A stretch of 64,000 nucleotides of DNA from a virus, in IMG/VR virus record IMGVR_UViG_3300007513_002727, positions 28,943-92,942 of that record; one strand, given 5' to 3'. This document shows, in pieces, positions 20,420 to 46,024 of the stretch (its first letter is position 1; every line of letters begins with the position of its first letter). The position numbers were made by a program, and so were the translations under genes. The notes beneath the pieces were generated by a model. It was not told the origin of the DNA. It searched no databases and worked only from the letters and a program-made list of their open reading frames with translations.

Positions 20420-20791
20420 TTATTTCAACTCTACAGTTCCGCCGGCTTCTTCTAACTGCTTTTTAAGTTTTTCAACTTCTTCTTTTTCAATATCTTCTTT
20501 AACTGGTTTTGGTAAATCCTCAACAAAATTCTTGGCTTCTATTAACCCTAATCCTAATATATCTTTAATTGCTTTTAATACTGGAATTTTTTTGTTCTCA
20601 CCAAATCCTGTTAGCATAACGGTTGCAGTTGCTTTCTCTTCTGCTGGTGCTGATGCTGATGCTTGGGCAGGTGCTGATTGTAAGTTATCTAGGTCTATGT
20701 TCCACTCTTTGGCTAGTTTTTTAGATAGGTCTAGTGCTTCTAGAACTGTAAGTTGCCCTAGTTCCTTCACTAATGTATCTATATTTGCCAT
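20420..20791 (-). CDS. rplL: Ribosomal protein bL12 (L7/L12)
   Basis: LTVLEALDLSKKL N-terminal domain, Ala-rich hinge, and KIPVLKAIK..LGLGLIEAK...LEEAGGTVELK. Confidence 0.93.
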   Translation of the reverse strand: MANIDTLVKELGQLTVLEALDLSKKLAKEWNIDLDNLQSAPAQASASAPAEEKATATVMLTGFGENKKIPVLKAIKDILGLGLIEAKNFVEDLPKPVKEDIEKEEVEKLKKQLEEAGGTVELK

Positions 20792-20800
20792 TATTTGTTA

Positions 20801-20935
20801 TTATTTTTTTCGTTTACCCATGTAATGCTCAGATGGTTCGTAGTTCCATCGTTTGCCATGATGTCCACGGATATCTGCATACCACATTCTAAGTCTTACT
20901 ATAAATTTTCGAATTGCTCTATTTCTGATTGTCAC
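20801..20935 (-). CDS. Small basic protein (44 aa; not in ORF track)
   Basis: GTG start abuts the upstream stop. MTIRNRAIRKFIVRLRMWYADIRGHHGKRWNYEPSEHYMGKRKK* fills the gap before rplL. Confidence 0.7.
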   Translation of the reverse strand: MTIRNRAIRKFIVRLRMWYADIRGHHGKRWNYEPSEHYMGKRKK

Positions 20936-21139
20936 TTATCTTCCTATCTTCTTTTTTCTACCAATTGGTAATTTTTGTTCTTTAACGAAAACCTCCCCTT
21001 TTTTCGTCTCCCACTCAATAGTTACCATCGGAGCCTTAGAAGATGCTTGAAACGACTTTAGAGCTTTCTTAAATGATGTTGCCTCAATTATTTTTTCTTC
21101 TGTTCCAGATATAATTTTAAATTCTCTCATTTTTGACAT
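20936..21139 (-). CDS. Small basic protein (67 aa)
   Basis: First gene of the minus-strand operon, behind TTGACA-17-TACATT. Confidence 0.65.
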   Translation of the reverse strand: MSKMREFKIISGTEEKIIEATSFKKALKSFQASSKAPMVTIEWETKKGEVFVKEQKLPIGRKKKIGR

Positions 21140-21147
21140 AATAATTT

Positions 21148-21191
21148 AATGTAACATAAGATTGACTTTTTGTCAACTGTATGCTTAAATA
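21148..21191. promoter_or_regulatory. Divergent promoter with palindromic -35 boxes (TTGACT-TTT-TGTCAA)
   Basis: Minus strand: TTGACA 21176-21171 and TGnTACATT. Plus strand: TTGACT 21162-21167 and TAAATA 21186-21191, just before tmRNA. Confidence 0.6.
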
Positions 21192-21196
21192 TTAAT

Positions 21197-21492
21197 AAGT
21201 TTGTTGACTAATAATTAATAAGCGGACAAGACGAGAGTTCGAATCTCTCCACCTCCACCAAATTTTGGTGGCTTATGTAATCCCTTTCGGGGGTGTTATT
21301 GGAAATCGATTGACGTCTAAACTTGTTACGAGAACTTGGACATGGTACTGACCTAACAGGCCGTTTTTAAATGCAAACAAAAGAGCATTAGGATTTGCTG
21401 ACTTTACAGTTGGTATGTCTGAATTGAGATTAGCGGCGTAATAACTGTTTAATTTCTGGGGTTTGGCCCACCTCGCAACAGAACGGGCCACT
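21197..21492 (+). ncRNA. ssrA: Circularly permuted (two-piece, alphaproteobacterial-type) tmRNA
   Basis: Acceptor piece: T-arm GAGAG-TTCGAAT-CTCTC and CACCTCC-A-CCA, ending at 21260. Coding piece starts GGGGGTG at 21289, giving the G3.U70 alanine identity pair. Tag 21373-21441 reads ANKRALGFADFTVGMSELRLAA*. 3' hairpin TGGCCC...GGGCCA. Confidence 0.95.
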
Positions 21493-21573
21493 TCATTTAA
21501 AACAACATATAACTTATACCGTCATATAATTGATGCAACTATTGATTTAAATAATTGCGTCAAGGGGGAGGGT

Positions 21574-21885
21574 ATGTTTAAAAAGGCACAAAAACGAACA
21601 AATTATTGGTCTAAGATCAGAAAGAAGGCACCTAAAGTCCCTGATATAACTTGTCCTGACATTGATTGGGTAGTAAATCAATTAGAAAAAGCCATAGGCA
21701 AATCAATAACACAAACACAGTTTAAAAGAATAGAAAAAAAGATGGAAAAATTAAGAATAACAAACGAACAATTAAGAGAAAGCGGAATATACTGGCATGA
21801 CGCTTGTAAAGAAACTGTTCGTGATTTACTTGGAAAGAAAAAGAACTCTGATACACCGTGGTTTTATAGGAGCTCTTTGGATTAG
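21574..21885 (+). CDS. Hypothetical protein
   Basis: SD GGGGAGG before ATG 21574. The longer ORF-track version overlaps tmRNA. Confidence 0.65.
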   Translation: MFKKAQKRTNYWSKIRKKAPKVPDITCPDIDWVVNQLEKAIGKSITQTQFKRIEKKMEKLRITNEQLRESGIYWHDACKETVRDLLGKKKNSDTPWFYRSSLD

Positions 21886-23518: not shown

Positions 23519-24089
23519 TGTTAATAAACTTAAATGGCTGGGTGAACACTTTCAATCATTACCTAGATTTCGTAAAAAAAACAACATCTTATCTAACACC
23601 GCAAGTTTAAAATTTCTTAAAACAGAAGTTGAAAGACTTAAAGATATGTTAAGACAAAAAAGATCAAGTGACGAACGTTATGAGATTAGTAAAATATTAA
23701 ATAGAACCGTTCGTAGAACACAAGATATTTGCCAAAACATTTATAGTATTCATTATTACGAAGAATTTGAACAAGACAAACGTAGAGTAAAAGAACACGT
23801 CATACCACAAAATTTATTAATTGATGCATATTTAGAAGGACATATAACATTTGAAACTATGTTGGGTATGCCGTTAGTAAATTTAAGCGAAGCAAGTGAT
23901 CAACTAATTACAGGTAAAGGACTAGCTAAAGTAAATTCAAATTGGGTATATCCTTTTAGAAGATATAAAATAGCAGGCATACAAGAAAACATTTATACTG
24001 CGAGTGGTGTTAAAATTGATTTCGAAAATTGGAGCCTTACTGATCACTTTAAACTATACAAAGAGATAGAACTATATGGAAAATTATAA
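23511..24089 (+). CDS. Putative HNH-like nuclease (EHxxP motif)
   Basis: VKEHVIPQN...LVNLSEA and PFRRYKIAGI; overlaps the ParB-like gene by 8 bp. Confidence 0.45.
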   Translation: MVDVNKLKWLGEHFQSLPRFRKKNNILSNTASLKFLKTEVERLKDMLRQKRSSDERYEISKILNRTVRRTQDICQNIYSIHYYEEFEQDKRRVKEHVIPQNLLIDAYLEGHITFETMLGMPLVNLSEASDQLITGKGLAKVNSNWVYPFRRYKIAGIQENIYTASGVKIDFENWSLTDHFKLYKEIELYGKL

Positions 24090-24690
24090 GCAAGAAATAG
24101 AAAACATGATTGCTGTATGTAATCTTCATGCAAGAAGTTATGCAGGTGGTAAAAATATTAGTTCAAAAGTACAAAATGCTATGCGAATGATTCCTAGACA
24201 TAACTTTGTTCCACATCATCCTTATAAAGATACTCCAATGCCAATTGGACATGGTCAAACAATTTCTCAACCTTTTATTGTAGCATATATGACAGATATG
24301 CTAGATATTGGTCTTTCACATACAGTATTAGAAATTGGTACAGGTTCAGGATACCAAGCGGCAGTACTATCTGAAGTTGCTTCAAAAGTTTATACTGTTG
24401 AAAGAATTAAAGCATTGGCGGATCAAACAAAAATACTTCTTGAACATTATAGTAATATACATATGAAAATAGGAAACGGATATGAAGGGTGGAATGAACA
24501 CGCACCTTATGATAGAATTATTGTAACAGCCATGCCAGATTATATTCCAAAATCATTAATTGAACAACTTAAAGACGGAGGCAAAATGATTATTCCTGTT
24601 AAAGGTAATTTAATATTAGTTACTAAAACAGGTAAAACATACACAGAGAAATCTTTAATTGGAGTACGTTTTGTACCATTAGTAGAATGA
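24076..24690 (+). CDS. pcm: Protein-L-isoaspartate O-methyltransferase
   Basis: PIGHGQTISQPFIVAYMT, VLEIGTGSGYQAAVL, APYDRIIVTA and VRFVPL. Confidence 0.95.
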   Translation: MENYKQEIENMIAVCNLHARSYAGGKNISSKVQNAMRMIPRHNFVPHHPYKDTPMPIGHGQTISQPFIVAYMTDMLDIGLSHTVLEIGTGSGYQAAVLSEVASKVYTVERIKALADQTKILLEHYSNIHMKIGNGYEGWNEHAPYDRIIVTAMPDYIPKSLIEQLKDGGKMIIPVKGNLILVTKTGKTYTEKSLIGVRFVPLVE

Positions 24691-25400
24691 TTGACTGGCA
24701 AAAATACGGACCTAGCTATACAGTATCGCCTGGCATTAAAAAAATTGGAGATCTTCCAATTATTGAATTTGATGATCAAGAGGATAGATATTTAGAACTA
24801 AAGAAAAAAACTAAAGAAAATATATTTTTTGATCCAATGTTTGATAACGACAAAGATCAAAAAGTAGTTAATAAAATAAAAGAGATATTAAAAATAGAAT
24901 ATCCTAACAAGAACTTTAATTTTAATACATTTGAAGAAATGGGTTATGCTATACAAGAAGACATAGCAATTTTCCATCGCTCTAATAAACTAATAGCTCT
25001 TCACGTATCGTTTCCTTCAAGTTGGAAACCTAAAGACAAAATTGGATTATCATTTGCAAATATTCATGCACCAGTACCGGGTATGCAAAAGTTTTTAGAA
25101 CAAGAACAAAAGTATGTAGATATGATGTGTACTGCTATTAAGCCTATTATTAGATATGTTTGGGGAGAACATTTTAATTATTTGTTAAATCCACTTGAAC
25201 CTCTTAATGGAGTAAAAGTAATGCACACAGAACGACAAACGTTTGTAGGACTACCAGAAGATGATTTAGCAATTTTCTTTATTAGAAAAAAAGTTATTCC
25301 GTATAGCGATACAGATACAGAGTTTCAATTATGGTATGAGAAACAAAAACTTTCAATGTCAGAAGAGCAGAAAACATACAAATTGGTAAATGAAGTTTGA
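24687..25400 (+). CDS. Heme-dependent oxidative N-demethylase-like protein (DUF3445), truncated
   Basis: IQEDIAI...SFPSSWKPKDKIGLSFANIHAPVPG...TERQTF. Confidence 0.75.
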   Translation: MIDWQKYGPSYTVSPGIKKIGDLPIIEFDDQEDRYLELKKKTKENIFFDPMFDNDKDQKVVNKIKEILKIEYPNKNFNFNTFEEMGYAIQEDIAIFHRSNKLIALHVSFPSSWKPKDKIGLSFANIHAPVPGMQKFLEQEQKYVDMMCTAIKPIIRYVWGEHFNYLLNPLEPLNGVKVMHTERQTFVGLPEDDLAIFFIRKKVIPYSDTDTEFQLWYEKQKLSMSEEQKTYKLVNEV

Positions 25401-25608
25401 TTGTTTTTATAAGGTTACTGTAACCACGTGTGTTCCTGAGTCTATAAATTTCTTTGAAGATCAAGAAATATATCATTGGGGATATTATCCATATCATTTG
25501 GTAATCAAAGGAGTAAAAGAACTTTACAAAGAGGGTGCTGATGCTGTAGAATTAGAAATGATAACACAAGAAGAATTTGACAAAATTATAAAACCATATA
25601 CACCATGA
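25390..25608 (+). CDS. Hypothetical protein
   Basis: Overlap-coupled ORF in the operon. Confidence 0.55.
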   Translation: MKFDCFYKVTVTTCVPESINFFEDQEIYHWGYYPYHLVIKGVKELYKEGADAVELEMITQEEFDKIIKPYTP

Positions 25609-25814
25609 AAGAATTTAAATTAAACATTAAAATAGGTGACAAAGTAGAAGTAGGACGATTTCGTAATGTTACCACTAAAATTAAAGCAATCGAACTTGAC
25701 AATAACGGGCAACCTGTTATAATAACAAATAAAGGTGCAAAGAAATTATTAAGTTGCAGATTGGTAAAACTATATAAAACATCAAAACAACTACTAATGG
25801 AAAAAAAGAAATGA
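25605..25814 (+). CDS. Small KOW/SH3-like protein; paralog of 5259..5498
   Basis: ATGA coupling and direct similarity to the ORF at 5259. Confidence 0.65.
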   Translation: MKEFKLNIKIGDKVEVGRFRNVTTKIKAIELDNNGQPVIITNKGAKKLLSCRLVKLYKTSKQLLMEKKK

Positions 25815-26533
25815 AACATTTAGGACACAAAGGAATAGAGGCAAACGATACACTACCAAAATATTTTGGTACAAATAATAGATTAATGACAACACTACAA
25901 AAGGTTGCTGAAAAAGATACTGCTGAATATTTTTACAATTTAGAAATACAACCAGAATTTATTCCAAGTGCAGAGCCAGAAACATTTGCAACACTAGATG
26001 CAAGTAAGGCAAAATGCAGAGAAGAAGCATGGAAACGTGCAAACGTCGATGGGTTTGTTGCAGAGTATGGTATAGACAAAGGTAAAAGTTTTATACAATT
26101 ATGTGAACTTAACAAAGATAATGAAACATTTGGCTTTGATGGATTTTTAGGATTGCCAGATGGTGTATGGCCGGGCAACATGATTCATCAAGGTGCGTTT
26201 AATTATGATGGACAAATTCCGTTTGATATCCCAAGCAATGGTACTATTACTAATGGTTGGTTTAATAAAACATTACCAAACTTTAATTATAAACAACCAG
26301 TTGCAAAATTTTTACATATTGATTGTGATGTATATTCAAGTACTGTAGACGTATTCAATACCTTGCAAGGCAAAATTGTTCCAGGTACTGTAATTGTATT
26401 CGACGACTATTGTAATCATCCAAATTGGAGACAAGGTGAATACAAGGCTTGGCAAGAATTTAGATCCAACAATAATATCCAATACAAATATCTTTATGTT
26501 GCTGGTATGGCCGTAGCATTAATTGTTATCTAA
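25811..26533 (+). CDS. TylF/MycF/NovP-like O-methyltransferase
   Basis: EYGIDKGKS, GFDGFLGLP, GWFNKTLP, FLHIDCDVYSST and IVFDDY. Confidence 0.85.
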   Translation: MKHLGHKGIEANDTLPKYFGTNNRLMTTLQKVAEKDTAEYFYNLEIQPEFIPSAEPETFATLDASKAKCREEAWKRANVDGFVAEYGIDKGKSFIQLCELNKDNETFGFDGFLGLPDGVWPGNMIHQGAFNYDGQIPFDIPSNGTITNGWFNKTLPNFNYKQPVAKFLHIDCDVYSSTVDVFNTLQGKIVPGTVIVFDDYCNHPNWRQGEYKAWQEFRSNNNIQYKYLYVAGMAVALIVI

Positions 26534-26695
26534 GTGACACTCACACACGGTTTAATATTAGGAATTGGTGGCACAATACTTACTTTAGTTGGCTTTGGTA
26601 TTGCTTTTTATACTGCTACGGCACAACAAAAAAAGAAACTACAAGATGAAGAAACTCAAAGAAAACATAAAAAATTGTATGGTAATTTTGGTTGA
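26534..26695 (+). CDS. Small single-pass membrane protein (53 aa; not in ORF track)
   Basis: GTG immediately after the upstream stop; MTLTHGLILGIGGTILTLVGFGIAFY followed by a charged tail. Confidence 0.6.
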   Translation: MTLTHGLILGIGGTILTLVGFGIAFYTATAQQKKKLQDEETQRKHKKLYGNFG

Positions 26696-26720
26696 CAAAA
26701 TACCAAAAATATAATATAAT
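26692..26720 (+). promoter_or_regulatory. Perfect sigma70 consensus promoter
   Basis: TTGACA (26692-26697), 17-nt spacer, TATAAT (26715-26720). Confidence 0.85.
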
Positions 26721-26727
26721 GGTAACT

Positions 26728-26886
26728 ATGCAAAAGCGAGCATCGGGTTTACAAGTGCGTAGAAACTCATTTGTCAACTTCAACCATATCACCCCCTTTA
26801 GGGTAATGCATTTTAGAAGCAGAGAGGCTGGTGACAGGCTTACTGCGAGACTGCGTAAGAACTTGTTCCCGATGTTAGGCTTTTAG
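26728..26886 (+). ncRNA. Candidate structured ncRNA, about 158-nt rod with internal bubbles (6S-like)
   Basis: Nested end-to-end pairing: AAAAGC/GCTTTT, AGCATCGGG/CCCGATGTT, ACAAGT/ACTTGT, TGCGTAG/CTGCGTA, TGTCA/TGACA. GC-richer than its flanks and begins at the expected start site of the consensus promoter. Confidence 0.6.
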
Positions 26887-26887
26887 T

Positions 26888-27373
26888 ATGAGAAAAAAAT
26901 CACAAGAGTTATTAGATAATTTAAACAAAATTACTGCTAAACCAAAAATGACATTTGAAGAAAATGTTGAATCTTATACTAATAGACATTATCCTAGCAC
27001 TATACACAAATTACCAACAAGTTATGACAAAGCAAAACGTTATAAAGACGAAGAAGGTGAAGAATATATTAAAATTGATAGAGTATATGGAGGACTATAC
27101 GAGTGCCAACTTAGACAAAAAGATGGTACAATATATAAAGGTAAACTCTATAATAAAAAAAGATTAATTAAAAATGAGGTAGATGGTAAAAACTTTTATT
27201 CACAATGTCATATGACGTCTGATGGACGTTGGTTTGATAACTGTGGATTACCAATTGAACCACCAAAACAAGTAGATATTGAACCTGAAGCAAAACCAGA
27301 CGAAGACGACATTAAAGAACAAAAAAGAATAGCACGTGAAAGAGAACAACGAATAATAGCAGGATTAAAATGA
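26888..27373 (+). CDS. Hypothetical protein
   Basis: 161-aa ORF with typical codon use. Confidence 0.6.
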   Translation: MRKKSQELLDNLNKITAKPKMTFEENVESYTNRHYPSTIHKLPTSYDKAKRYKDEEGEEYIKIDRVYGGLYECQLRQKDGTIYKGKLYNKKRLIKNEVDGKNFYSQCHMTSDGRWFDNCGLPIEPPKQVDIEPEAKPDEDDIKEQKRIAREREQRIIAGLK

Positions 27374-27681
27374 GTTGTTTGTCTTTACTTTTTGCCTTAT
27401 CAATGCACATTGGATTAGAAGGAAATTATAATAACTACCATCCACACGCACGATGTCAAAAAGATGCTTTAATTTCAGGAGTTTATTATAATAGTGAAGA
27501 TAATGTATCTGCTTACATTGGTCTTGAACATAACGGATTTGAAGTTGGATTAGTTACTGGTTACAGCCAAGATGTAGTTCCTATGTTTAGATATAAAAAG
27601 AATAATTGGTTTATTGCTCCTGGATATGAAATTGACGGAACTCATGGAATTGTAATTGGATGGGCGTTTAAGTTAAAATGA
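27370..27681 (+). CDS. Small secreted/outer-membrane beta-strand protein
   Basis: Signal-like N-terminus and alternating amphipathic strands (GVYYNSE..SAYIG...VGLVTGY). Confidence 0.55.
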   Translation: MSCLSLLFALSMHIGLEGNYNNYHPHARCQKDALISGVYYNSEDNVSAYIGLEHNGFEVGLVTGYSQDVVPMFRYKKNNWFIAPGYEIDGTHGIVIGWAFKLK

Positions 27682-27830
27682 ATTCATTAGCAAAACTTTT
27701 TGAACCCAGCAAAGACCGTTTAATTGGTAATGCTAAACGTATGATGGACAATGCTAAAAATCCTTGGTTTGAACAATATTGGACAAAAGTTTATGTTCAT
27801 CTTTGTAAACAATACAAAAAACTCAACTAA
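27678..27830 (+). CDS. Small hypothetical protein (50 aa; not in ORF track)
   Basis: ATGA coupling; MNSLAKLFEPSKDRLIGNAKRMMDNAKNPWFEQYWTKVYVHLCKQYKKLN*. Confidence 0.6.
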   Translation: MNSLAKLFEPSKDRLIGNAKRMMDNAKNPWFEQYWTKVYVHLCKQYKKLN

Positions 27831-27837
27831 ATACCTT

Positions 27838-28005
27838 TGTAACGCCACTGTTCTAGTGACGTCGGCAAACAAATGACCCGTTTGTACCGAAAGGGAAGAC
27901 CATAGAAAAGGGCCGGGCCGTACGCGAATATCTCGCCAACAATCAAATATAGTGTAGTATGGAGAACAATATTATTGACTCCTATTGCTGATCTATGCTA
28001 CACTA
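27838..28005 (+). ncRNA. Candidate structured RNA or leader upstream of the dioxygenase cluster
   Basis: GC-rich non-coding stretch after TAAATA (27828-27833). Hairpins CACTG/TAGTG, GCAAAC/GTTTGT, CC-GAAA-GG flanked by GUA/GAA, GCGA/TCGC, and the 11-bp TAGTGTAGTAT/ATGCTACACTA stem. Confidence 0.5.
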
Positions 28006-28021
28006 AAAATGGAGATATACA

Positions 28022-28834
28022 ATGGAAGTCAAAAGAAAATTAAAACCAAGCGAAATAAATGCCAACTATAGTGCATTACCAAAAGATATTAATTCATACA
28101 TCGATGAGAGTGTGATGGCCAAACAGCCAGAGATAGATCTTTGGGAGTTCATGCAGACACGCCCAGATCAACTGTATGAAGAATGGGCATACGAAGTAGG
28201 ATCTGACACAACGACAAAATATGAGGCAAAAGCATTTACAAATCTAAACCTTAACGAAGATGATTTTTTTCAATTCATGAAAGAAAATAAACACACTTGT
28301 CAAAAAAAATACTACGAACGGAGACCATATCACAATGGTAGAAGTGAACTAACTGAAAACTTTCCAATGAAATGTGGATACAATGCTAGAAACACAGTTG
28401 AATATAATTGGGGACTTTATGGCAATAGCAATGAACAAGTAAAAGAGTTACTAGGTAGTCGTAAAGTATGGGAAGATAAAATTGGAATAGATTACGACAC
28501 TGCATTAATAAGATTATTAGCATATATGCCAGGAATGATTCTGCCATGGCACGTTGATAACTTAGGCAACTGGTGTAGAAACTATAAACATTTGAATCCA
28601 AATATTGATACTAGAATGTGTGACTTGGGTCCTATCAAAAGATATCTTGTAATGATTACTGATTGGCATTGGGGACACGTAATACAATTTGAAAATAGTT
28701 ACTTTCCTAATTACAAAAGCGGTGATGTATTTGATTTACCTATACCACGTCCACACTGCTCTGCTAATATGGGTATGAGAATAAAACTAACTTGTAGTAT
28801 AAGTGGTGCTCAAACAAAAGATTATACAAAATGA
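28022..28834 (+). CDS. Cupin/AspH-like Fe(II) dioxygenase, paralog 1
   Basis: YMPGMILPWHVD...TDWHWGH...GD...PHCSANMG (HxD...H triad). Confidence 0.75.
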   Translation: MEVKRKLKPSEINANYSALPKDINSYIDESVMAKQPEIDLWEFMQTRPDQLYEEWAYEVGSDTTTKYEAKAFTNLNLNEDDFFQFMKENKHTCQKKYYERRPYHNGRSELTENFPMKCGYNARNTVEYNWGLYGNSNEQVKELLGSRKVWEDKIGIDYDTALIRLLAYMPGMILPWHVDNLGNWCRNYKHLNPNIDTRMCDLGPIKRYLVMITDWHWGHVIQFENSYFPNYKSGDVFDLPIPRPHCSANMGMRIKLTCSISGAQTKDYTK

Positions 28835-29553
28835 AACTAAAACATCCTATTTCAGAAACTAGGATTGACCCAAAAGTTGCTGTTCCAAAAGAAATATTAG
28901 AGCAGTATCCTTGGCATTGGGATCCAATCACAACTGATCATACAGATAACACACACTTTATGAAAAACATAGAGTTTGATTGGAAGGGTTTAGGGGATTG
29001 GGCAATAAAAAAATGCAATGAACATTTAACTCCTCAAAAATATTGGAGGTTTGATTACGAACAAGATGCAATATATCATGCAAAAGAAAACGTAAACAAT
29101 ATGCCAATTAAAGAACAAGCATTTCTTGCCTTTAAAAATAACACACACTGTGAAGAAAATAGTCAATATTTTAAAATTGCAAATGAAGAGTTTGAACATT
29201 GGCAAGAACCACTTATGGATATGTTTCCAGAACTAAAAAAAACTAAAATGGGTGTGAGTTTATTTGTTCAACCACCCGGTCACACTATGTTCACCCATGT
29301 AGACACCTACAGTAGTTTTATAAGACGTACAGGAGATACAAAAGCAGACTACACTATTTTAAGAAGATATATGGCTTTTGTTCGAGACTGGGATTTTGGG
29401 CATTTCTTTCATTATGGAAATCATTGTTTCAGTCAATGGAGAGCAGGAGACTGTTATGATCTAGTGCCTGGAGTATATCACGGTAGTGCTAATGCAGGAT
29501 TAAATCCTAAAATTACAATTCATTGGAGTGGTGAATTAAAAGATAATGGATAA
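28831..29553 (+). CDS. Cupin/AspH-like Fe(II) dioxygenase, paralog 2
   Basis: QPPGHTMFTHVD...RDWDFGH...WRAGD...HGSANAG. Confidence 0.75.
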   Translation: MKLKHPISETRIDPKVAVPKEILEQYPWHWDPITTDHTDNTHFMKNIEFDWKGLGDWAIKKCNEHLTPQKYWRFDYEQDAIYHAKENVNNMPIKEQAFLAFKNNTHCEENSQYFKIANEEFEHWQEPLMDMFPELKKTKMGVSLFVQPPGHTMFTHVDTYSSFIRRTGDTKADYTILRRYMAFVRDWDFGHFFHYGNHCFSQWRAGDCYDLVPGVYHGSANAGLNPKITIHWSGELKDNG

Positions 29554-35128: not shown

Positions 35129-35150
35129 AACGGTATAAAGGAGAACAATT

Positions 35151-35944: not shown

Positions 35945-36000
35945 AATCTCGTTAGTAAAAAACCTCAATAAAATCAACACTTCTAGCAAGACCAACTAGG

Positions 36001-36028: not shown

Positions 36029-36034
36029 TGTACT

Positions 36035-36199: not shown

Positions 36200-36207
36200 A
36201 GGAAAAA

Positions 36208-36762: not shown

Positions 36763-36768
36763 GGCGAT

Positions 36769-37125: not shown

Positions 37126-37552
37126 TATACTATTTCTTACTAATTGCACAACAGGAACGACAACTACAAATAAACCTAGTAAAGAAGTAAATGGTTCTTT
37201 GACAAAAATGCCAATTCCGATGATTTTAGGAGATGATGTCAAATATTCTATGCCTGCTTTTTTATGGAGAACAACTCAATTTATGAGATTTAGTCTCAAT
37301 AAAGAAGAAAAACAAAAGCACCAAAGTGCTGTATTTTTTATGTTAGACAACGCAAAAAATGGTGAAATTGTTAGTTGGTACAGTGATAAACGATTAGTAA
37401 ACGGCAAAGTTAGAGTAATACGTTCATACCCTACAGGTGCTGGTATTTGCCGTACATATCAAGCATACATTAAAGTTAACGGCACAGAACGACATATGAC
37501 CAATAATGCTTGTAAAAAGAACTGGTCACCTAGTTGGTCATTTTACAAATAA
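37091..37552 (+). CDS. 17-kDa surface antigen (RT0821/Lpp0805-like) lipoprotein
   Basis: SD GGAGG; lipobox LTNC; NGEIVSW...GKV...CRTY...NAC. Confidence 0.7.
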   Translation: MKSLKVIIVLSSILFLTNCTTGTTTTNKPSKEVNGSLTKMPIPMILGDDVKYSMPAFLWRTTQFMRFSLNKEEKQKHQSAVFFMLDNAKNGEIVSWYSDKRLVNGKVRVIRSYPTGAGICRTYQAYIKVNGTERHMTNNACKKNWSPSWSFYK

Positions 37553-37608
37553 TCTTACTATAATAAACTAAATAGTCATATAAATAAGTTTAGAAGGAAT
37601 TTATACAT

Positions 37609-38325: not shown

Positions 38326-40998
38326 ATGTTCATTGCATTTCTAACACTACTATCAGCATTATCCATATCAGGTGTAGCAATATTCTACTCGGTAATAGGA
38401 CTTGCAACTATATTTCCAGGAGCATTTTGGCCTGTAATTATAATGGGTTCTGTGTTAGAAGTAGGTAAGTTAATCACAGCCTCATGGCTATATCGGCACT
38501 GGAAACAGACCCGCTTTTTATTAAAAACATATCTTACAATCTCGGTTATAGTTTTAAGTTTAATAACATCCATGGGTATATTTGGATTCTTATCTAAAGC
38601 CCATTTAGAACAAAATCTAGCATCTGAGAATCTCACACAAAGAATTGACCTTATTAATAGTAAAATTGTTAGCCAACAAACTTATATTAAAAGACAAAAT
38701 GCAATTATTGAAAGAGCAGAAAAAAGTCTTACAAGAACAGTTGGTACTAACGACGAAGCAATTGCAATTGAAAGACAAAATCTAGAAGATGCACAAAATA
38801 AATTAAAAGAAGCAATTAACATTGAAAAACAAAGTCTGGCAGATGCTGAAGACAAGTTCAAAACACTACTTACAGTCGAGACCAATACAATTAAAAGTTT
38901 AAATGATAGATTAAAAATATTAGATGCAGATGTAACTGCCATATTAACTCAAAAAAATAAAGCATTCTTTAATGAAGAAAAGGCGGCGGCTGATTTAAAA
39001 GCATCACAGAAAGAAGAACGTGAATTAATTGATCTTAAAATTAATGAAGCACAAGGCAGAATAAATGAACTTAAAGGAGATTATGCAACTGATAATGCTA
39101 TTATACAAAAAAGAATAGAAAAATTAAGAGAAGCAATTACATCTGAATCTGCTGTCATACAAGCAAGAATTGAGAAATTAAGAGAAGGTAGTGTTGATGA
39201 CAAATCAGTCATTTACATACAAATAGAAGTAGCAGAAGACAACATCTTAAAAGCACAAAACAGTATAGACGATTTAATTATTGACAGGGAACCACTTGAA
39301 TCTGAAATGATTAAACTAGAGGCAGAAGTAGGTCCTATAAAATACATTGCCGCACTTGTTATTGATTGGGGAGTTACAAATGAAGTTGAATTAAATGAAG
39401 CAGTAAGATGGGTTATCTTGCTTATAATTGTAGTATTTGATCCACTTGCAGTTGCATTATTATTAGCGGCCAACCAAAGTTTAATGAGAAAATTTCCAGT
39501 TGCACCGCCACCACCGCCACAAGAAATTGTTGATTTAGAAAAACCAGAACCTTATGAACCACCTTTTGCACCTGTACAAAATGATATGGCCGAAAAAGCA
39601 AAAGCTCTTGCTGAACAAGAAAAAGCAGAAAAAATACAAAAAGATTGGGCAGTAAAACTTTACGAATTTAATAAAGAACGATTAGCAAAACGAGACAAAG
39701 ATTTAGAAGAACAAAAAAAAGTTGAAGAAACTATTCCACATATAGATCTTATAGGTCAAAAAAAAACTGAAGAAAAAGAAATAGTAGTAGATAAAGACGA
39801 TGGCTTTGATCTAGATGAAGTCAAATACGATATAGAAACTAAAACTAAATCAAATAATGAAGAACAAAAAGCTAGAGAGAAAGAAGAGAAAGAAAAGCAA
39901 CTAGAAGAATTTAAAAAAAGAGAACAAGAAGAGAAAGAAAATTTAGAAAGAATAGCAAGAGAAGCTAAAGAAGAAGAAGCTAAAGTAACAACAGTAGAAG
40001 AGGCATTAAAAATGCCAGAGTCAGAGAGTGTTGAAACACCAATCGAAGAACCCGAAAGAACACGACCCGACTTTACAGAAGTAATTGAACCCACAGAACC
40101 TGCAGGTGATGGAACATTTAAAACAGGAACGTTAGGTCCAAAAATTAAAAAGAGTAAGATAATTGATCCAAAAGTAATGACTGATTTTGAAAGAACTGGT
40201 ATGTTAAACAAGTTACACCAAGAGCATGGCAAGTATGAAGATATTAGTGATGAAGCCCTTAAAAAAGAAAGAGATGATGCTAATAAAGCACAATTCCTAG
40301 CTGACGTTGCATTAACAGAAGAAGAAGCACGTAACCATCCACCGATGACAGAGTCACGTATGGCATATTTTCAAGATCATATTGATGATATATTAAGAGG
40401 CAATTCAACATTTGAAAACATTCCACCTGATATAGCAAAAACTGTTGCATTATTAATGACTGATGAATATCCAAATCCAGAGATTATTACTAAAGGTTCA
40501 GCTTTAAAACCAGAAGGCGATAAAAATGTAGAAACAATGACCCAGGATGCCTTAAAAGAAAAATTCATGGAACAACCAGAAACCGAAGAAAGACCAATCA
40601 CTGATGAAGAACTTGACGACTTATTAGAAGGGTTTCCTGAACGTCCAAAAGCAAATGAAGACTATGTACAAAACGAAGAACAAACCGACGAAACACTTTG
40701 GCAAAAAACTAAAGAATTAGATTTACCAGAACCTGAAAAGAATGAAATACAAATACCAGAATTAGAAAGTACAACTGAAGATATACCTGTATTAGTTGAT
40801 AAAGTTAAAATAGAAAATGTTATTCCAGTAGACAAGTTTACCAGATACAAAAAGAGACTTGCAACTGATGAGGAATACCACCAAAGGATAGAACAACGCA
40901 TTAATAATTTAATAACCAAATTAGAAGCAGGTGAAGTCAAACTAAACGACTTGACTAATGCAGATCAAAAAGCTATACTAGATATATTGAATCAATAA
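38326..40998 (+). CDS. Membrane-anchored coiled-coil protein (conserved in T4-like phages) with a long acidic C-terminal extension
   Basis: N-terminal TM region ALSISGVAIFYSVIGLA...LEVGKL...SMGIFGFLSKAH; later EVGPIKYIA...FDPLAV. Confidence 0.75.
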   Translation: MFIAFLTLLSALSISGVAIFYSVIGLATIFPGAFWPVIIMGSVLEVGKLITASWLYRHWKQTRFLLKTYLTISVIVLSLITSMGIFGFLSKAHLEQNLASENLTQRIDLINSKIVSQQTYIKRQNAIIERAEKSLTRTVGTNDEAIAIERQNLEDAQNKLKEAINIEKQSLADAEDKFKTLLTVETNTIKSLNDRLKILDADVTAILTQKNKAFFNEEKAAADLKASQKEERELIDLKINEAQGRINELKGDYATDNAIIQKRIEKLREAITSESAVIQARIEKLREGSVDDKSVIYIQIEVAEDNILKAQNSIDDLIIDREPLESEMIKLEAEVGPIKYIAALVIDWGVTNEVELNEAVRWVILLIIVVFDPLAVALLLAANQSLMRKFPVAPPPPPQEIVDLEKPEPYEPPFAPVQNDMAEKAKALAEQEKAEKIQKDWAVKLYEFNKERLAKRDKDLEEQKKVEETIPHIDLIGQKKTEEKEIVVDKDDGFDLDEVKYDIETKTKSNNEEQKAREKEEKEKQLEEFKKREQEEKENLERIAREAKEEEAKVTTVEEALKMPESESVETPIEEPERTRPDFTEVIEPTEPAGDGTFKTGTLGPKIKKSKIIDPKVMTDFERTGMLNKLHQEHGKYEDISDEALKKERDDANKAQFLADVALTEEEARNHPPMTESRMAYFQDHIDDILRGNSTFENIPPDIAKTVALLMTDEYPNPEIITKGSALKPEGDKNVETMTQDALKEKFMEQPETEERPITDEELDDLLEGFPERPKANEDYVQNEEQTDETLWQKTKELDLPEPEKNEIQIPELESTTEDIPVLVDKVKIENVIPVDKFTRYKKRLATDEEYHQRIEQRINNLITKLEAGEVKLNDLTNADQKAILDILNQ

Positions 40999-41555
40999 TG
41001 GAACAAAAAAACGTAAAAGCAAAAAAAGAAAAATCAGTAATAGGTCCAAAGCTAGAAGAACGGAAAAAGCAAGGTACTATTACACTTGTTACTCCACCTT
41101 CTTTTTTTCAAAATCAAAATAGAAGTTTTTGTTTAATTAATCTTAGCAAAAAAGATAAAGATAACTTTGCAGATGCAGTAAACAAATGGTTTCCTAAAAA
41201 TGACTTAACAATATACCTTTGGGATGATAATAACTTTTCAGCATTAGATCCATTTGGCAACGATAGTGATCCTGAATATGAAAAATACTTAGAAAATTGG
41301 AAACCAAACAAAGCAGGTAGAGATTATACTTGGTTATTAAATGCCTGTAGAGCGGCTTCAACAATTGTAATGAATATGGACTATTCATCTAATCAATTAA
41401 AAGTTTGGTCGGGTTATATTCTTACAATGTCAAAAACTTGGTTCATTAATTCTAATCAAGACGATGCATCGGCATTTGGAGTTCTTAATAGAAATATATT
41501 TTCAGGAATGCATGAATTATTTCCTAAGATTAAAAAATTAAAAGATAGTCAATAA
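40998..41555 (+). CDS. Hypothetical protein
   Basis: Coupled ORF upstream of clpX. Confidence 0.6.
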   Translation: MEQKNVKAKKEKSVIGPKLEERKKQGTITLVTPPSFFQNQNRSFCLINLSKKDKDNFADAVNKWFPKNDLTIYLWDDNNFSALDPFGNDSDPEYEKYLENWKPNKAGRDYTWLLNACRAASTIVMNMDYSSNQLKVWSGYILTMSKTWFINSNQDDASAFGVLNRNIFSGMHELFPKIKKLKDSQ

Positions 41556-41556: not shown

Positions 41557-42810
41557 ATGGGAGATGATAGTTTAGTCTGTTCCTTTTGCAGTAAATCTCG
41601 AAAAGACGTTACAAAAATGATTGTAGGTGCAACTAAAGTTGCTATCTGTAATGAGTGTGTAAAACTTTGTATTGAAATATTAGATGAAGACATAATTAAA
41701 TCCAAAGCAGAACAATTTGCTAAAGGTGATAAAGATATTCTTAACCCTGTTAATATTAAAGAATATTTAGATCAATATATTATAGGACAAGATGCCGCAA
41801 AAACTGTATTGTCAGTAGCAGTATCTAACCACTATAAAAGAATTACAAATCCACCTAAAGATTTTGAGTTAGATAAATCAAATGTATTATTATTAGGAGC
41901 CACTGGTGCAGGTAAAACACTTATGGCTAGAACAATAGCACAATATTTAGATGTACCTGTTGCTATTGCAGATGCAACAACATTAACCGAGTCTGGCTAC
42001 GTTGGTGAAGATGTAGAAAATGTAGTACAAAAATTATACGCAAATTCAAGTGGTGACATTCAAAAAACTGAACGTGGTATTATATTCATAGATGAAATAG
42101 ATAAGATTACACGTAAAAGTGAGAATACTTCTATAACAAGAGATGTATCTGGAGAAGGTGTACAACAAGGATTACTTAAAATTGTAGAAGGAACTGAATG
42201 CAGAATTATGCCACAGGGAGGCAGAAAACATCCTGACCAACAAATGGTTACTATTAATACTAAAAATATATTGTTTATAGTAGGTGGGGCATTTACAGAA
42301 TTAGAAAAACAAATACGAAACAGAAAATCAAGTGGTATTGGTTTTGGTTCTAAATTAAAAGACGATGATATAAAAAATTATCTTATTGACGTAAGACCCG
42401 AAGACTTAATAAAATATGGCCTAATTCCAGAATTTGTAGGAAGATTTTCAATGATTACTCATGTTGATGATTTAAGTGAATCACAATTAGTGCAAATACT
42501 TACAGAGCCTAAAAATGCTTTAATAAAACAAATGCAATATTTGTTTGGATTAGACGAGATTAAATTAGAATTTAGCAAAGATGCCAAACTATCTGTTGCT
42601 AAAAAAGCCAAAGCATTAGGTACAAATGCCCGAGGTTTGAAAAATATTGTAGATAGAGTATTATTACCATTCCAATTTGATGCCCATGAAATGAAAAATA
42701 AAGGTGTCATCACAATTAAAATAACAAGTGACGTGGTTGACAAAAATGCCGATCCAGTGTTACTATTTAAGAAGCAAGATGGAACAATACCAAAGAAACA
42801 ATCAGTTTAA
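41557..42810 (+). CDS. clpX: ATP-dependent Clp protease ATP-binding subunit ClpX
   Basis: Zn finger CSFC...CNEC, Walker A GATGAGKT, GYVG pore loop, Walker B IFIDEIDK, RKH loop and IGF loop. Confidence 0.96.
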   Translation: MGDDSLVCSFCSKSRKDVTKMIVGATKVAICNECVKLCIEILDEDIIKSKAEQFAKGDKDILNPVNIKEYLDQYIIGQDAAKTVLSVAVSNHYKRITNPPKDFELDKSNVLLLGATGAGKTLMARTIAQYLDVPVAIADATTLTESGYVGEDVENVVQKLYANSSGDIQKTERGIIFIDEIDKITRKSENTSITRDVSGEGVQQGLLKIVEGTECRIMPQGGRKHPDQQMVTINTKNILFIVGGAFTELEKQIRNRKSSGIGFGSKLKDDDIKNYLIDVRPEDLIKYGLIPEFVGRFSMITHVDDLSESQLVQILTEPKNALIKQMQYLFGLDEIKLEFSKDAKLSVAKKAKALGTNARGLKNIVDRVLLPFQFDAHEMKNKGVITIKITSDVVDKNADPVLLFKKQDGTIPKKQSV

Positions 42811-43111
42811 AAACTTTAGAAACTCTTGGAATAATAAACCCTCTAGAGGGCGGAAACCTAAACCACCAATGCCACCTGGCTGTAATTACTATGCGGAAGT
42901 ACGCGATGGTGATGATCCTATGCGAGCTTATCGTAGAATTAAAAAGAAAATTAAAGATGATAAGTTCTTTGAAGAAATTAAAGAACGACAATATTACCAA
43001 AAACCATCATTTAAAAAACGTGAAAAAGCAAAACGTAAAAAAATAGTTCTAAAAAAGCTACAACGAGAACGTGACGATAACCGTTTTATAGGTAAAACCA
43101 ATAGAAATTAA
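42779..43111 (+). CDS. rpsU: Ribosomal protein bS21 homolog with an N-terminal extension
   Basis: EVRDGDDPMRAYRRIKKKI...EIKERQYYQKPSFKKR. Start moved to ATG 42779. Confidence 0.85.
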   Translation: MEQYQRNNQFKNFRNSWNNKPSRGRKPKPPMPPGCNYYAEVRDGDDPMRAYRRIKKKIKDDKFFEEIKERQYYQKPSFKKREKAKRKKIVLKKLQRERDDNRFIGKTNRN

Positions 43112-43132: not shown

Positions 43133-43172
43133 TTGACATATAGTACATATATGTTATAATAAGAGATAAATA
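43133..43172 (+). promoter_or_regulatory. Tandem early (sigma70) and late promoters for hsp20
   Basis: TTGACA-16-TATAAT (43133-43160) and TAAATA (43167-43172). Confidence 0.7.
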
Positions 43173-43174
43173 AC

Positions 43175-43237
43175 GTTGAAGGTTGCTATAGATAGGACCT
43201 TTAATATTAACTCGCTAACTTAGGAGGAAAGCACATG
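43175..43237 (+). promoter_or_regulatory. ROSE-like RNA thermometer in the hsp20 5'UTR
   Basis: 5' hairpin TTGAAGGT/ACCTTTAA, then CTCGCT-AACTT-AGGAG, where U(U/C)GCU pairs with the SD leaving a bulged G. Confidence 0.7.
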
Positions 43238-43687
43238 AAAAACAATCTATCTATCTTTAATAACTTAAGACCCATAACAGTAGGGTTTGACAATATGTTT
43301 GATCATTTTGAACATATGTTAGACGACGGCGGTTTCTTTAGAAACGGTACTGTTAGTAACTTCCCACCTTACAATATTGAAAAGACTGGAAAAAATTCTT
43401 ATAATGTAGAACTTGCACTTGCAGGTTTTAATAAAAAGGATATAGAAGTTACATATGAGGATAACCTTTTATCAGTAAAATCTAAAAAAGAAGATACTAC
43501 TGAACAAACTGATGCCGATGGTAATATGATTCATAGAGGTATTTCAAAAAGATACTTCGCAAAATCATTTACTATTGCAAACGACGTTGAAATAAAAGGA
43601 GCTGAACTTAAAGATGGTTTACTTGTAATTGCTTTGGAACGAATACTTCCGGAGGCAAAAAAAGCAAAAACTATCGAAATAAAGTAA
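43235..43687 (+). CDS. hsp20: Small heat shock protein Hsp20 (IbpA-like)
   Basis: FPPYNI, ELALAGF, HRGISKRYF and AELKDGLL. Confidence 0.95.
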   Translation: MKNNLSIFNNLRPITVGFDNMFDHFEHMLDDGGFFRNGTVSNFPPYNIEKTGKNSYNVELALAGFNKKDIEVTYEDNLLSVKSKKEDTTEQTDADGNMIHRGISKRYFAKSFTIANDVEIKGAELKDGLLVIALERILPEAKKAKTIEIK

Positions 43688-43694
43688 GCAATAT

Positions 43695-43725
43695 GATAGG
43701 TAGGGTGGTAATCACCCTACTTGTC
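43695..43725 (+). terminator. Hairpin terminator after hsp20
   Basis: GATAGGTAGGGTG-GTAAT-CACCCTACTTGTC. Confidence 0.7.
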
Positions 43726-43771
43726 AATAGACAAATTTAAAAAATGTGTTATAATAAGGAGATAAAACATT

Positions 43772-45661
43772 ATGAGTAAAATTATAGGAATAGACTTAGG
43801 TACTACAAATTCATGCGTATCATTAATGGAAGGTACACAGGCAAAAGTATTAGAAAATGCAGAAGGCAAAAGAACAACACCTTCAATAGTAGCATTTGGA
43901 GATGAGAAATTAGTTGGAGAACCTGCTAAAAGACAAGCGGTTTCAAATCCAGCAAATACAATATTCGCGGCTAAAAGATTAATTGGAAGAAAATTTGATG
44001 GAGATTCTGTACAAAAAGATGTACAAACATCACCTTTTAAAATAGTAAAAGCAGATAATGGAGATGCTTGGATTGAAGCAAAAGGTAAAAAATATTCACC
44101 AGCACAGATCTCAGGTTTCGTTTTACAAAAAATGAAAGAAACTGCTGAAAAATATTTAGGACAAGAAGTTAAAAAAGCTGTAATAACAGTACCAGCATAC
44201 TTTAATGACTCACAAAGACAAGCAACAAAAGACGCAGGTAAAATTGCAGGACTTGAAGTTGAACGTATTGTAAACGAACCAACTGCGGCGGCACTTGCAT
44301 ATGGTTTAGATAAAAAGAAATCAGGCACAGTTGCAGTGTACGACCTAGGTGGTGGTACATTTGATATATCTATATTAGAAATAGGCGACGGAGTATTTGA
44401 AGTTAAATCTACAAATGGTGATACATCATTAGGTGGAGAAGATTTTGATAATGTTCTAGTTGATTATCTTTGTAGTGAATTTAAAAAAGATACTGGTATA
44501 GACATAAAAACAGACAATTTAGCACTTCAAAGAATTAAAGAAGCGGCAGAAAAAGCTAAATGTGAATTATCATCAGCATTACAAACAGATATTAATTTAC
44601 CATTTCTTACTGCTGATAAAACTGGACCAAAACACTTAAACATTAAACTTACAAGAGCAAAATTTGAATCATTAACAGAATCATTAATTAGAAAAACATT
44701 TGCTCCTTGTAAAACAGCATTAAAAGATTCAGGAATTAGTAAAGACAAAATAGATGAAGTTATCCTTGTAGGAGGTATGACTCGTATGCCAAAAGTATTA
44801 GAAACAGTTAAAAGTTTCTTTGGCAAAGAACCACACACAGGAGTTAATCCAGACGAAGTTGTAGCAATTGGAGCCGCAATACAGGGTGGAGTATTACAAG
44901 GTGACGTTAAAGATGTATTACTTTTAGATGTAACACCTTTATCACTTGGTATTGAAACACTTGGTGGTGTTGCTACTAAACTTATTGAAAAGAATACAAC
45001 AATACCTACAAAGAAAAGTCAAGTATTTTCAACTGCTGAAAACAATCAAGCGGCAGTTACAATTAGAGTTGTACAGGGTGAAAGAGAAATGGCTACTGAC
45101 AATAAACAACTTGGAAACTTTAACTTAGAAGGCATTCCACCAGCACCAAGAGGTGTACCTCAAATTGAAGTAACATTTGATATAGATGCAAATGGTATTG
45201 TAAATGTGTCTGCAAAAGATAAAGGCACAGGTAAAGAACAAAAAATTACAATACAAGCATCAGGTGGATTAAGTGAAGCCGATATTGAAAAAATGGTTAA
45301 AGATGCTGAAGCAAACAAAGAAGCAGACAAAAAGAAAAGAGAAGAGGTTGATGCTAGAAATCATGCTGACACACTTGCTGACTCTACAGAAAAATCACTT
45401 AAAGAACACGGTGACAAAGTTTCTGTAGAAGATAAAACAAAAATAGAAACTAGCCTAGCTGATTTAAAAGAAGCACTTAAAGGTAATGACGTTGAATCTA
45501 TAAAAAGTAAAACAGGTGCCCTTACCGAAGCATCAATGAAACTAGGTGAAGCAATCTATAAAACTCAACAAGAACAAGCAAAACCAGAAGCAACTGAGAG
45601 TACATCAGGCGGTGAAAAAGAAGACGTTGTTGATGCAGATTTTGAAGAAGTTAAAAAATAA
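43772..45661 (+). CDS. dnaK: Chaperone DnaK (Hsp70)
   Basis: [24 protein letters not shown] and LVGGMTRMP; C-terminal VVDADFEEV. Promoter TAGACA...TGTTATAAT and SD AGGAG. Confidence 0.98.
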
Positions 45662-45724
45662 CCAATAAATATGTATAATATAGACAATGTCAAATTTAAA
45701 AAGTAAACAAAACAAAGAGTTAAG

Positions 45725-46024
45725 ATGGCAACAAATATACAAACACTAACCAAAGAAAAAACTAAACTTGATGAACCAAGTTTATACGATGTTATTTTTT
45801 TAAATGATAATATTACTACGCAGGAATTTGTAGTTAGGGTTTTAAAACAAATTTTTAATAAATCACAAGAACAAGCAGAAGCAATTATGAAAAAAATACA
45901 TAATGACGGACAAGGTACTGTAGGTTCTTATGTCCACGAAGTTGCAGAACAAAAAGGCATTGAGACTACTTTACTTGCACGGCAAGAAGGAATGCCACTG
46001 CAAATAAAAGTTAAGAGACAATGA
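45725..46024 (+). CDS. clpS: ClpS N-degron adaptor
   Basis: PSLYDVIFLNDNITTQEFVV...IHNDG...EVAEQK...PL. Confidence 0.9.
   Translation: MATNIQTLTKEKTKLDEPSLYDVIFLNDNITTQEFVVRVLKQIFNKSQEQAEAIMKKIHNDGQGTVGSYVHEVAEQKGIETTLLARQEGMPLQIKVKRQ

Follow-up and report, generated by a model that had tools for sequence, protein, structure and literature searches.

How does a virus come to carry much of the equipment with which bacteria rescue stalled ribosomes and dispose of proteins, and what would that equipment do during an infection? The question is raised by a window of 64,000 nucleotides (bases 28943-92942 of the 92.9-kb IMG/VR record IMGVR_UViG_3300007513_002727, CheckV completeness 39%), in which a transfer-messenger RNA (tmRNA) gene occurs together with genes for bL12, PIMT, ClpX, a bS21-like protein, Hsp20, DnaK and ClpS. 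An original prediction had taken these eight components for a near-complete phage-encoded network of translation rescue and proteostasis. ARAGORN, Rfam and Pfam recovered all eight at the predicted positions, and clpX, the rpsU-like gene, hsp20, dnaK and clpS are contiguous on a single strand, as had been described.

Our answer, which we hold to be rather probable, is that the window belongs to a T4-like jumbo phage (at least about 200 kb) that inherited a toolkit for protein turnover and ribosome rescue vertically, and that DnaK, bL12, the bS21-like protein and PIMT are later, patchy additions. Judged by gene order, the phage lineage is large and mostly uncultured, with Atu_ph07 and Sinorhizobium jumbo phages among its cultured members. 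Its predicted toolkit consists of an alpha-type two-piece tmRNA, one cassette in the order membrane protein-ClpX-Hsp20-ClpS, and a second cassette, DnaJ-(Def)-ClpA, about 70 kb further on.

Phage origin and conservation of the toolkit

Relatives of the window were taken to be viral contigs that carry a relative of its ClpX (n = 191). Fourteen of them form a close clade, in which ClpX is 68-79% identical to the window's copy, while the remainder, the wider lineage, stand at about 50-55%; counts of loci given here refer to the best 80 of the 191 contigs. ClpX, Hsp20 and ClpS follow one another on one strand in 50 of the 51 loci that have at least 6 kb of downstream flank; Hsp20 lies downstream of clpX in 73/80 loci, and Hsp20 is followed by ClpS in 68/80. 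The upstream neighbor is equally constant in the lineage: a homologue of an 890-aa membrane and coiled-coil protein (38326-40998, plus strand) precedes clpX in 67 of the 69 loci whose upstream flank extends to 5 kb or more. In this protein, transmembrane helices at the N terminus are combined with a long coiled coil and a tail that is acidic and of low complexity. The cultured phage Atu_ph07 has the same order, from membrane protein through ClpX and Hsp20 to ClpS.

The proteins of this cassette are well preserved. ClpX (41557-42810, plus strand; 417 aa) has a PF06689 zinc finger (E = 3.5e-14) and a single AAA+ module (PF07724 AAA_2, E = 1.4e-31). Its translation reads CSFC...CNEC in the zinc finger, GATGAGKT in Walker A and IIFIDEID in Walker B, followed by SGYVGED, GGRKHP and SGIGFGS, so that the GYVG, RKH and IGF loops are intact, as originally noted. 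It is 51-53% identical to the ClpX of SAR11 and of Devosia, and this equal distance from the two argues that the gene is old in the phage lineage. Hsp20 (43235-43687, plus strand; Pfam E = 1.9e-17) is 60% identical to SAR11 Hsp20. The N-degron adaptor ClpS (45725-46024, plus strand; PF02617, E = 1.5e-25) aligns to Caulobacter ClpS 3dnj (E = 2.4e-17). The ratio of nonsynonymous to synonymous substitution rates (dN/dS), estimated only from close-clade pairs with dS below 3 since dS is saturated in many pairs, ranges from 0.03 to 0.17 for the genes of the window: 0.04 for ClpX, 0.10 for Hsp20, 0.03 for ClpS and 0.13 for the membrane protein. Selection on these genes is thus purifying and not relaxed, the latter being an outcome that would have counted against the original prediction.

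The tmRNA (21141-21532, plus strand) is of the two-piece, permuted alpha type and was detected by ARAGORN, at 21165-21532, and by two Rfam models, RF04321 tmRNA_permuted (80.8 bits; gathering threshold 47) and RF01849 alpha_tmRNA (59.2 bits; gathering threshold 50). As expected of the permuted order, the acceptor piece, with its CCA at 21258-21260, precedes the coding piece. The tag frame (21373-21441) translates into ANKRALGFADFTVGMSELRLAA followed by a stop, that is, 22 residues which start with Ala and end with LAA, and an LAA ending is a ClpX degron. On the window ARAGORN reports only the last nine residues of the tag, and it reports the full 22 for ten close relatives, in which the tag is kept with conservative changes only. 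The tags of distant phages have 9-10 residues (ADENLALAA or ANDEMFALAA), and all of them end in LAA. The extra N-terminal part of the 22-residue tag could serve as an adaptor-binding site. Of the 14 close-clade records, 13 have a tmRNA, as do five or more distant records.

Are these genes viral at all? IMG/VR classes the record as 'provirus', and many of its genes have cellular homologues (DnaK, Suf, ClpX), which might suggest an assembly chimera, or a provirus with host flank, in which housekeeping-like genes of a bacterial chromosome have been joined to phage DNA. We regard this as very improbable. Dozens of viral contigs, independent of one another and drawn from different samples, have the same gene order, as does cultured Atu_ph07, and this identifies the DNA as that of a phage. 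The genes are embedded among virus-only families; both proteins without assigned function that flank clpX, for instance, have virus-only clusters as their nearest neighbors in the protein atlas. When the record was compared with a 1.19-Mb SAR11 contig, only 17 of its 158 open reading frames (ORFs) matched, the best at 78% identity, and there was no host flank. The content of guanine plus cytosine (G+C), 32%, is even along the window, and the 3' end continues in a contig of the same clade, G074, into T4-like baseplate and replication genes. Relatives (G027, G073) likewise carry T4-like genes for a baseplate wedge, a clamp loader and a DNA polymerase. The 'provirus' label is probably best explained by the many cell-like auxiliary genes themselves.

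What is conserved is narrower than the network originally proposed. The tmRNA and ClpX-Hsp20-ClpS recur across the related phages and, with ClpA and DnaJ, which lie outside the window, make up a lineage-wide core; the other parts are patchy, DnaK, bL12 and the bS21-like protein being sporadic and PIMT confined to the window. The idea of a single unit therefore holds for the core and not for the additions.

Partner proteins, host and division of labor

The window had been described as lacking the partners on which several of these proteins depend. This is true of the whole 92.9-kb record (about 39% of the genome), in which no ClpP, SmpB, DnaJ, GrpE or second AAA_2 protein was found, but it is not true of the clade. 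A walk in the 3' direction from the window led through G027 to a clamp loader, and a scan with the clamp loader returned many marine contigs in which DnaJ and ClpA follow it at a distance of 6-9 kb. Contig G074 (32% G+C) carries a PurF-like gene 83% identical to that at 59963-61309 of the window, followed by a clamp loader, DnaJ, peptide deformylase (Def) and ClpA. Its ClpA has a Clp_N domain, the part to which ClpS docks, and two AAA modules with Walker A, GYVG and an IGF loop, and its DnaJ has a J domain and a C-terminal domain. Since G074 is joined to the window by the PurF-like gene, the window's own clade encodes ClpA and DnaJ, about 30 kb beyond the window's end. Just after this DnaJ-Def-ClpA cassette, G074 also encodes a 1215-aa protein with a subtilase S8 domain (L436:5834-9481), itself a further protease in this neighborhood.

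ClpP is the variable member. Larger and more distant contigs have a canonical ClpP (E ~1e-80), in many cases accompanied by a divergent second copy, together with a ClpA of about 765 aa and an adjoining J-protein, the clamp loader lying 3-13 kb before DnaJ-ClpA. Most relatives have one to three ClpPs, placed near clpX or clpA. A complete phage genome of a sister marine clade, G079, which was found with a SAR11 ClpP query, has three (at 156.9-157.4, 244.7-245.2 and 287.1-287.6 kb): the first type, with 69% identity to SAR11 ClpP, is represented by a single copy 3.6 kb after clpS, and the other two copies have diverged, one of this pair lying directly beside thyX. That query matched nothing from the window's own clade, and when a distant-clade ClpP served as the query, all matches (81% identity or more) belonged to the distant clade. 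Searches of the record, the 14 close contigs, G027 and G073-G077 yielded no ClpP. Joined end to end through shared genes, G000, G074 and G073 give a composite of about 200 kb for this clade; it is without the head and packaging region, and it spans the sites at which relatives have ClpP (downstream of clpS and of clpA, and next to thyX). In G074, the two ORFs that follow clpA were considered as ClpP candidates and have no similarity to ClpP.

SmpB was found neither in the record nor in 26 relatives nor in complete G079, and GrpE was found in 0/34 phage records, again including G079. Both proteins are established components of bacteria, and SAR11 is presumed to have them as well. Because the two are missing even from a complete 328-kb genome, the sequence evidence implies that SmpB and GrpE must be supplied by the host. 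The suggestion that the phage provides the parts that determine specificity and borrows the catalytic cores is thus borne out for SmpB and GrpE, but it fails for ClpA and DnaJ, which the clade encodes itself, and for the ClpPs of relatives, so that it is not a general rule. The search beyond the window, in short, returned ClpA and DnaJ in the same clade, and not, in the contigs covered, ClpP, SmpB or GrpE.

Which host would supply them? Gene similarities and G+C point to a SAR11-type marine alphaproteobacterium as the probable host. In SAR11, clpP adjoins clpX. No SAR11 tmRNA was detected on the 1.19-Mb contig by ARAGORN or nhmmer, and the gene may sit on another contig. Across 41 Pelagibacteraceae genomes (G028, G033-G072), clpS and clpA are adjacent where they occur, and no genome has just one of them (both in 18, neither in 23), a clean divide in N-degron capacity within the family. 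Among the 23 without them is the genome chosen for detailed comparison, in which DnaK shares 78% identity with the phage protein. The earlier assumption that phage ClpS borrows ClpA from its host therefore does not stand as such: in a host without ClpA, phage ClpS could work only with phage ClpA.

Under the explanation that we favor, a toolkit of maintenance, the parts would act together as follows. During a long infection, when several hundred phage proteins are made and host mRNA decays, the phage would ensure that ribosomes and amino acids are reused. Once host alanyl-tRNA synthetase, SmpB and EF-Tu had charged and delivered it, the phage tmRNA would free stalled ribosomes and add the LAA-ended tag; phage ClpX would recognize this tag and feed the tagged protein to ClpP, and in the window's clade that peptidase may be the host's. 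ClpS with phage ClpA would add an N-degron route, which many SAR11 genomes lack, and Hsp20, DnaK and DnaJ would, with host GrpE, hold and fold phage proteins. Expression of the genes, the substrates named here and the use of host ClpP are all inferred.

The same inventory can be read as a targeted takeover, in essence the idea of the original prediction, in which phage parts redirect host machines: a clade-specific tag, ClpX, ClpS and exchangeable ribosomal proteins would select the proteins to be degraded and the mRNAs to be translated, and the work itself would fall to host ClpP, SmpB and GrpE. The lack of SmpB and GrpE even in complete G079 fits this proposal, as do the IGF loops that both unfoldases keep in a clade whose roughly 200 kb of sequence yielded no ClpP. 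Further points in its favor are the unusual 22-residue tag, conserved in the close clade against 9-10 residues in relatives, an altered ClpS pocket (described below), and the report that phage bS21 enters Escherichia coli ribosomes and changes their activity (PMC6375957). On the other hand, the phages of this clade have ClpA and DnaJ genes of their own, and most relatives encode ClpPs; bL12, the bS21-like protein and PIMT are sporadic and so cannot be essential to a common strategy; and the choice and specificity of substrates are predictions from sequence. Taking these together, we consider a takeover possible, with the chances against it. We give no greater credence to a related scenario for the SAR11-associated clade alone, by which that clade would have dropped its own ClpP genes and kept ClpX, ClpA and ClpS, with ClpP-docking loops intact, as three phage selectors on the host's single ClpP. 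An N-degron pathway would thereby be installed in streamlined hosts without ClpA and ClpS and, together with the clade-specific 22-residue tag, would give the phage private control over what the host protease degrades.

A further possibility is that nothing is degraded at all: ClpX, ClpA, Hsp20, DnaK and DnaJ might merely help virion assembly, as chaperones and unfoldases for a large capsid and tail, the tmRNA being an unrelated carry-over. T4-like head assembly is known to depend on chaperones, and no ClpP was found in the roughly 200 kb of the window's clade. The tag, however, ends in the ClpX degron LAA, the ClpP-docking IGF loops are conserved in both ClpX and ClpA, most relatives have a ClpP near clpX or clpA, and ClpS is not known to have a role beyond delivery to ClpAP. 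Although translocase or assembly roles have been proposed for the ClpA and ClpX of jumbo phages (Iyer et al., PMC7824862), we find assembly as the only function improbable.

Several points weigh against the maintenance toolkit as well. Expression of the gene set and the action of its proteins are predicted from sequence, by which alone a maintenance role and the targeted destruction of host proteins are indistinguishable. The record holds no capsid or terminase gene, and its phage nature is founded on synteny and on replication and tail genes recognized through PHROG; similarly, its probable membership in the Atu_ph07-like T4-type lineage is founded on Clp/Hsp20 synteny and on the replication and baseplate genes of relatives. 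The window's clade may yet encode a ClpP, since its composite of about 200 kb is incomplete. The host is inferred from gene similarity and G+C only, and a phage genome of 200-330 kb would be very large for SAR11. Finally, two residues of the ClpS pocket have changed. The N-degron pocket described in the structural literature on ClpS is Asn-Asp-Asp-x-Thr-x-Met ... His; the corresponding residues are N-D-N-I-T-T-Q ... H in the window, N-D-N-I-T-T-M in close relatives and N-D-[DEN]-x-T-x-M in the wider lineage. The second pocket Asp has thus become Asn across the close clade, and the gatekeeper Met, kept by all relatives and by cellular ClpS, has become Gln in the window's copy alone. With these two replacements, the specificity or even the activity of ClpS may differ.

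Later additions and neighboring genes

DnaK (43772-45661, plus strand) matches the HSP70 profile with 909 bits over positions 1-598 of 599, is 77-79% identical to Pelagibacteraceae DnaK and has a dN/dS of 0.17. It was the one component placed in a phylogeny against Pelagibacterales. In the maximum-likelihood tree, the window's DnaK and that of locus L005 fall within the Pelagibacteraceae clade, with a support of 97 in the Shimodaira-Hasegawa-like approximate likelihood ratio test (SH-aLRT), and the DnaKs of distant phages form a separate clade. Only 8/80 loci have the gene, which lies between Hsp20 and ClpS in the window and L005 and between ClpX and Hsp20 in seven distant loci. The tree thus points to capture of DnaK from a Pelagibacteraceae-like host.

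The two ribosomal proteins are also scattered in their distribution. The bL12 homologue (20420-20791, minus strand; 123 aa) has both the N-terminal dimerization domain (PF16320, E = 3.8e-07) and the C-terminal domain (PF00542, E = 3.6e-25), is 44% identical to SAR11 bL12 and has a dN/dS of 0.13. Among relatives it occurs only in G002 and G014, in both directly beside the tmRNA, and, as a distant homologue, in G016. The bS21-like protein (42869-43111, plus strand) scores 36.7 bits against PF01165 Ribosomal_S21 (cut-off 27) over profile positions 3-49 of 55. Its ORF is open from 42728, and the ATG at 42869, which gives a protein of about 80 aa, is the more likely start. Homologues were found in L004, L005 and G079 only, and the dN/dS, from one pair, is 0.12. 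SAR11 itself does not lack bS21, as 38 of the 41 Pelagibacteraceae genomes have it.

PIMT/Pcm (24076-24690, plus strand; Pfam PCMT, E = 1.5e-53) was found in 0/32 related records and has no homologue on the 1.19-Mb SAR11 contig. It lies within about 10 kb, between orf192 and orf217, that is missing from the relative L008, and on this distribution it appears to be an accessory gene specific to the window's strain. The stretch that L008 lacks (within 24076-37600) also holds a HODM-like protein, a TylF-type methyltransferase and a cluster of paralogous oxygenases.

At the tmRNA locus, the bL12 operon had been described as divergent from ssrA at a shared palindromic promoter. The palindrome exists, but the gene truly divergent from ssrA is orf67, and rplL lies downstream of it. 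In an alignment of close-clade sequences, the arms of this palindrome, TTGAC-N5-GTCAA (21162-21176), are invariant in 11/11, and the 5-nt spacer is variable. A promoter scan of the minus strand gave TTGACA-17-TACATT, and we interpret the palindrome as putative back-to-back -35 boxes, for ssrA on the plus strand and for orf67 and bL12 on the minus strand. The product of orf67 (20936-21139, minus strand) is a basic, lysine-rich protein of 67 aa with no Pfam match. Copies beside the tmRNA are 68-73% identical in nine close-clade loci and 49% identical in G018, and this constant pairing with ssrA suggests a tmRNA-related role. Between orf67 and bL12 there is a short ORF (20800-20900, minus strand) that begins MWYADIRGHHGKRWNYEPSEHYMGKRKK. 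No tRNA gene was found in the 93 kb of the record.

Around clpX, orf185 (40998-41555, plus strand; 185 aa, no Pfam match) ends 1 nt before the clpX start. It probably adopts a nucleoside-deoxyribosyltransferase or YtoQ-like fold, on weak evidence: an atlas lead to YtoQ (0.88-0.89), an AlphaFold model with a mean predicted local distance difference test score (pLDDT) of 65.5, and a best Foldseek match to 4mcj (E = 6e-4, template modeling (TM) score ~0.5). Because it occupies the position of bacterial clpP, directly upstream of clpX, orf185 was considered as a divergent ClpP, and also as an SspB-like adaptor; the lack of a Pfam match and of any phmmer similarity to ClpP, together with the weak YtoQ-type fold, led us to reject both. 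Ahead of hsp20, a sigma-70-type site, TTGACA-16-TATAAT (43133-43160, plus strand), suggests that hsp20-dnaK-clpS forms a transcription unit of its own.

Directly after clpS in the close clade comes a 114-aa ORF without a Pfam match (46021-46365, plus strand), copies of which, 42-75% identical, occupy this place in 12 close loci. Further on (46567-50446 and 51252-57482) lie genes for glutaredoxin, ThyX, SufB, a SufC-like protein, a TonB-receptor plug protein and a B12 radical-SAM protein. SufB is 73% identical to that of SAR11, and both SufB and ThyX are also present in G079. One ORF of this region, orf211 (48162-48797), was examined as a ClpP candidate and is ThyX.

Significance and comparison with known systems

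A gene set of this kind is already known, since jumbo phages with Clp proteins, Hsp20 and tmRNA, and viral bS21 and bL12 that enter ribosomes, have been reported. Three things are new here: the two-cassette layout, which hundreds of contigs conserve; a clade of marine phages, probably of SAR11, with a 22-residue tag; and an inventory of partners in which SmpB and GrpE are never phage-encoded, ClpA and DnaJ are, and ClpP varies. What was a list of genes becomes a defined, conserved trait of one giant-phage lineage sampled from soil, freshwater and ocean. For annotators, it follows that Clp, chaperone and tmRNA genes in such a record are not host contamination, and they are probably the cause of its 'provirus' class. 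For experimenters, it offers a division of labor to test, in which the host supplies SmpB and GrpE, the phage supplies ClpA and DnaJ, and ClpP varies. If the host is indeed SAR11 and the peptidase is host ClpP, this would be a natural case of a virus that equips its host, a cell among Earth's most abundant and most streamlined, with an extra route of degradation, and it would bear on how infection affects protein turnover and nutrient recycling in the ocean.

Compared with the bacterial systems of ssrA/SmpB, ClpXP, ClpS-ClpAP, DnaK-DnaJ-GrpE and small heat-shock proteins, the phage versions keep the domain architectures and the defining motifs: the LAA end of the tag, the zinc finger, the GYVG, RKH and IGF loops and most of the ClpS pocket. 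They differ in arrangement, as the phage genes are scattered over the genome and the cellular ones form the operons clpP-clpX, clpS-clpA and dnaK-dnaJ, and in completeness, as the phage has no SmpB or GrpE and no ClpP was found in the roughly 200 kb of the window's clade.

Among uncultured phages, the closest complete genome for comparison is that of marine G079 (IMG/VR UViG 3300020477_000990; L488-L504), which has 328,149 bp, is classed complete and has 31.8% G+C. It shares 49 of the record's 158 ORFs in colinear blocks, and its order is ClpX, bS21-like protein, Hsp20, DnaK (80% identical), ClpS; an alpha tmRNA, bL12, DnaJ-Def-ClpA, ThyX and SufB are also present. Unlike the window, it has three ClpPs, the short tag ADENLALAA, 15 tRNA genes (one counted twice owing to a terminal overlap) and no PIMT, and its tmRNA and bL12 lie far from clpX. 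With a ClpX only 50% identical, it belongs to a different genus-level clade.

Of the cultured phages, Atu_ph07 (490 kb) has ClpX (gp002), Hsp20 (gp710) and ClpS (gp708) in the same order, across the origin of its numbering. Its ClpX is 49% identical to the window's, and the Sinorhizobium phage Phosso has ClpS and a ClpX that is 52% identical. Atu_ph07, AP-J-162 and Phosso are Polybotosvirus-like phages of 470-490 kb with a T4-like core and alphaproteobacterial hosts. Earlier reports describe ClpS, ClpX, ClpA, ClpP, Hsp20 and J-proteins in jumbo phages, Atu_ph07 among them (Iyer et al., PMC7824862), a tmRNA, six Clp ORFs, Hsp20 and DnaJ in AP-J-162 (PMC11242549), and tmRNAs in huge phages (Al-Shayeb et al., PMC7162821). 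Protein identities between the window and the Atu_ph07 group are only about 40-50%. Atu_ph07 and the Sinorhizobium phages come from soil or freshwater and have a higher G+C, many tRNA genes and IF-3 beside clpX, whereas the window's phage has 32% G+C, no tRNA in 93 kb, the 22-residue tag, and a SAR11-derived DnaK, bL12 and PIMT.

The ribosomal proteins, finally, can be set beside the viral bS21 and bL12 of Mizuno et al. (2019, PMC6375957), which enter ribosomes. The window's bS21-like ORF (36.7 bits, start codon uncertain) is far more divergent than bS21 of the type carried by pelagiphage HTVC008M. In the cultivated phages of that study bL12 occurs only in genomes below 80 kb (PMC6375957), whereas the window has a full-length, two-domain bL12 in a genome of the jumbo type. 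The likeness is nonetheless clear: bS21 and bL12 are the two commonest viral types, and both sets belong to marine phages, in the window's case probably of SAR11, and are under purifying selection.

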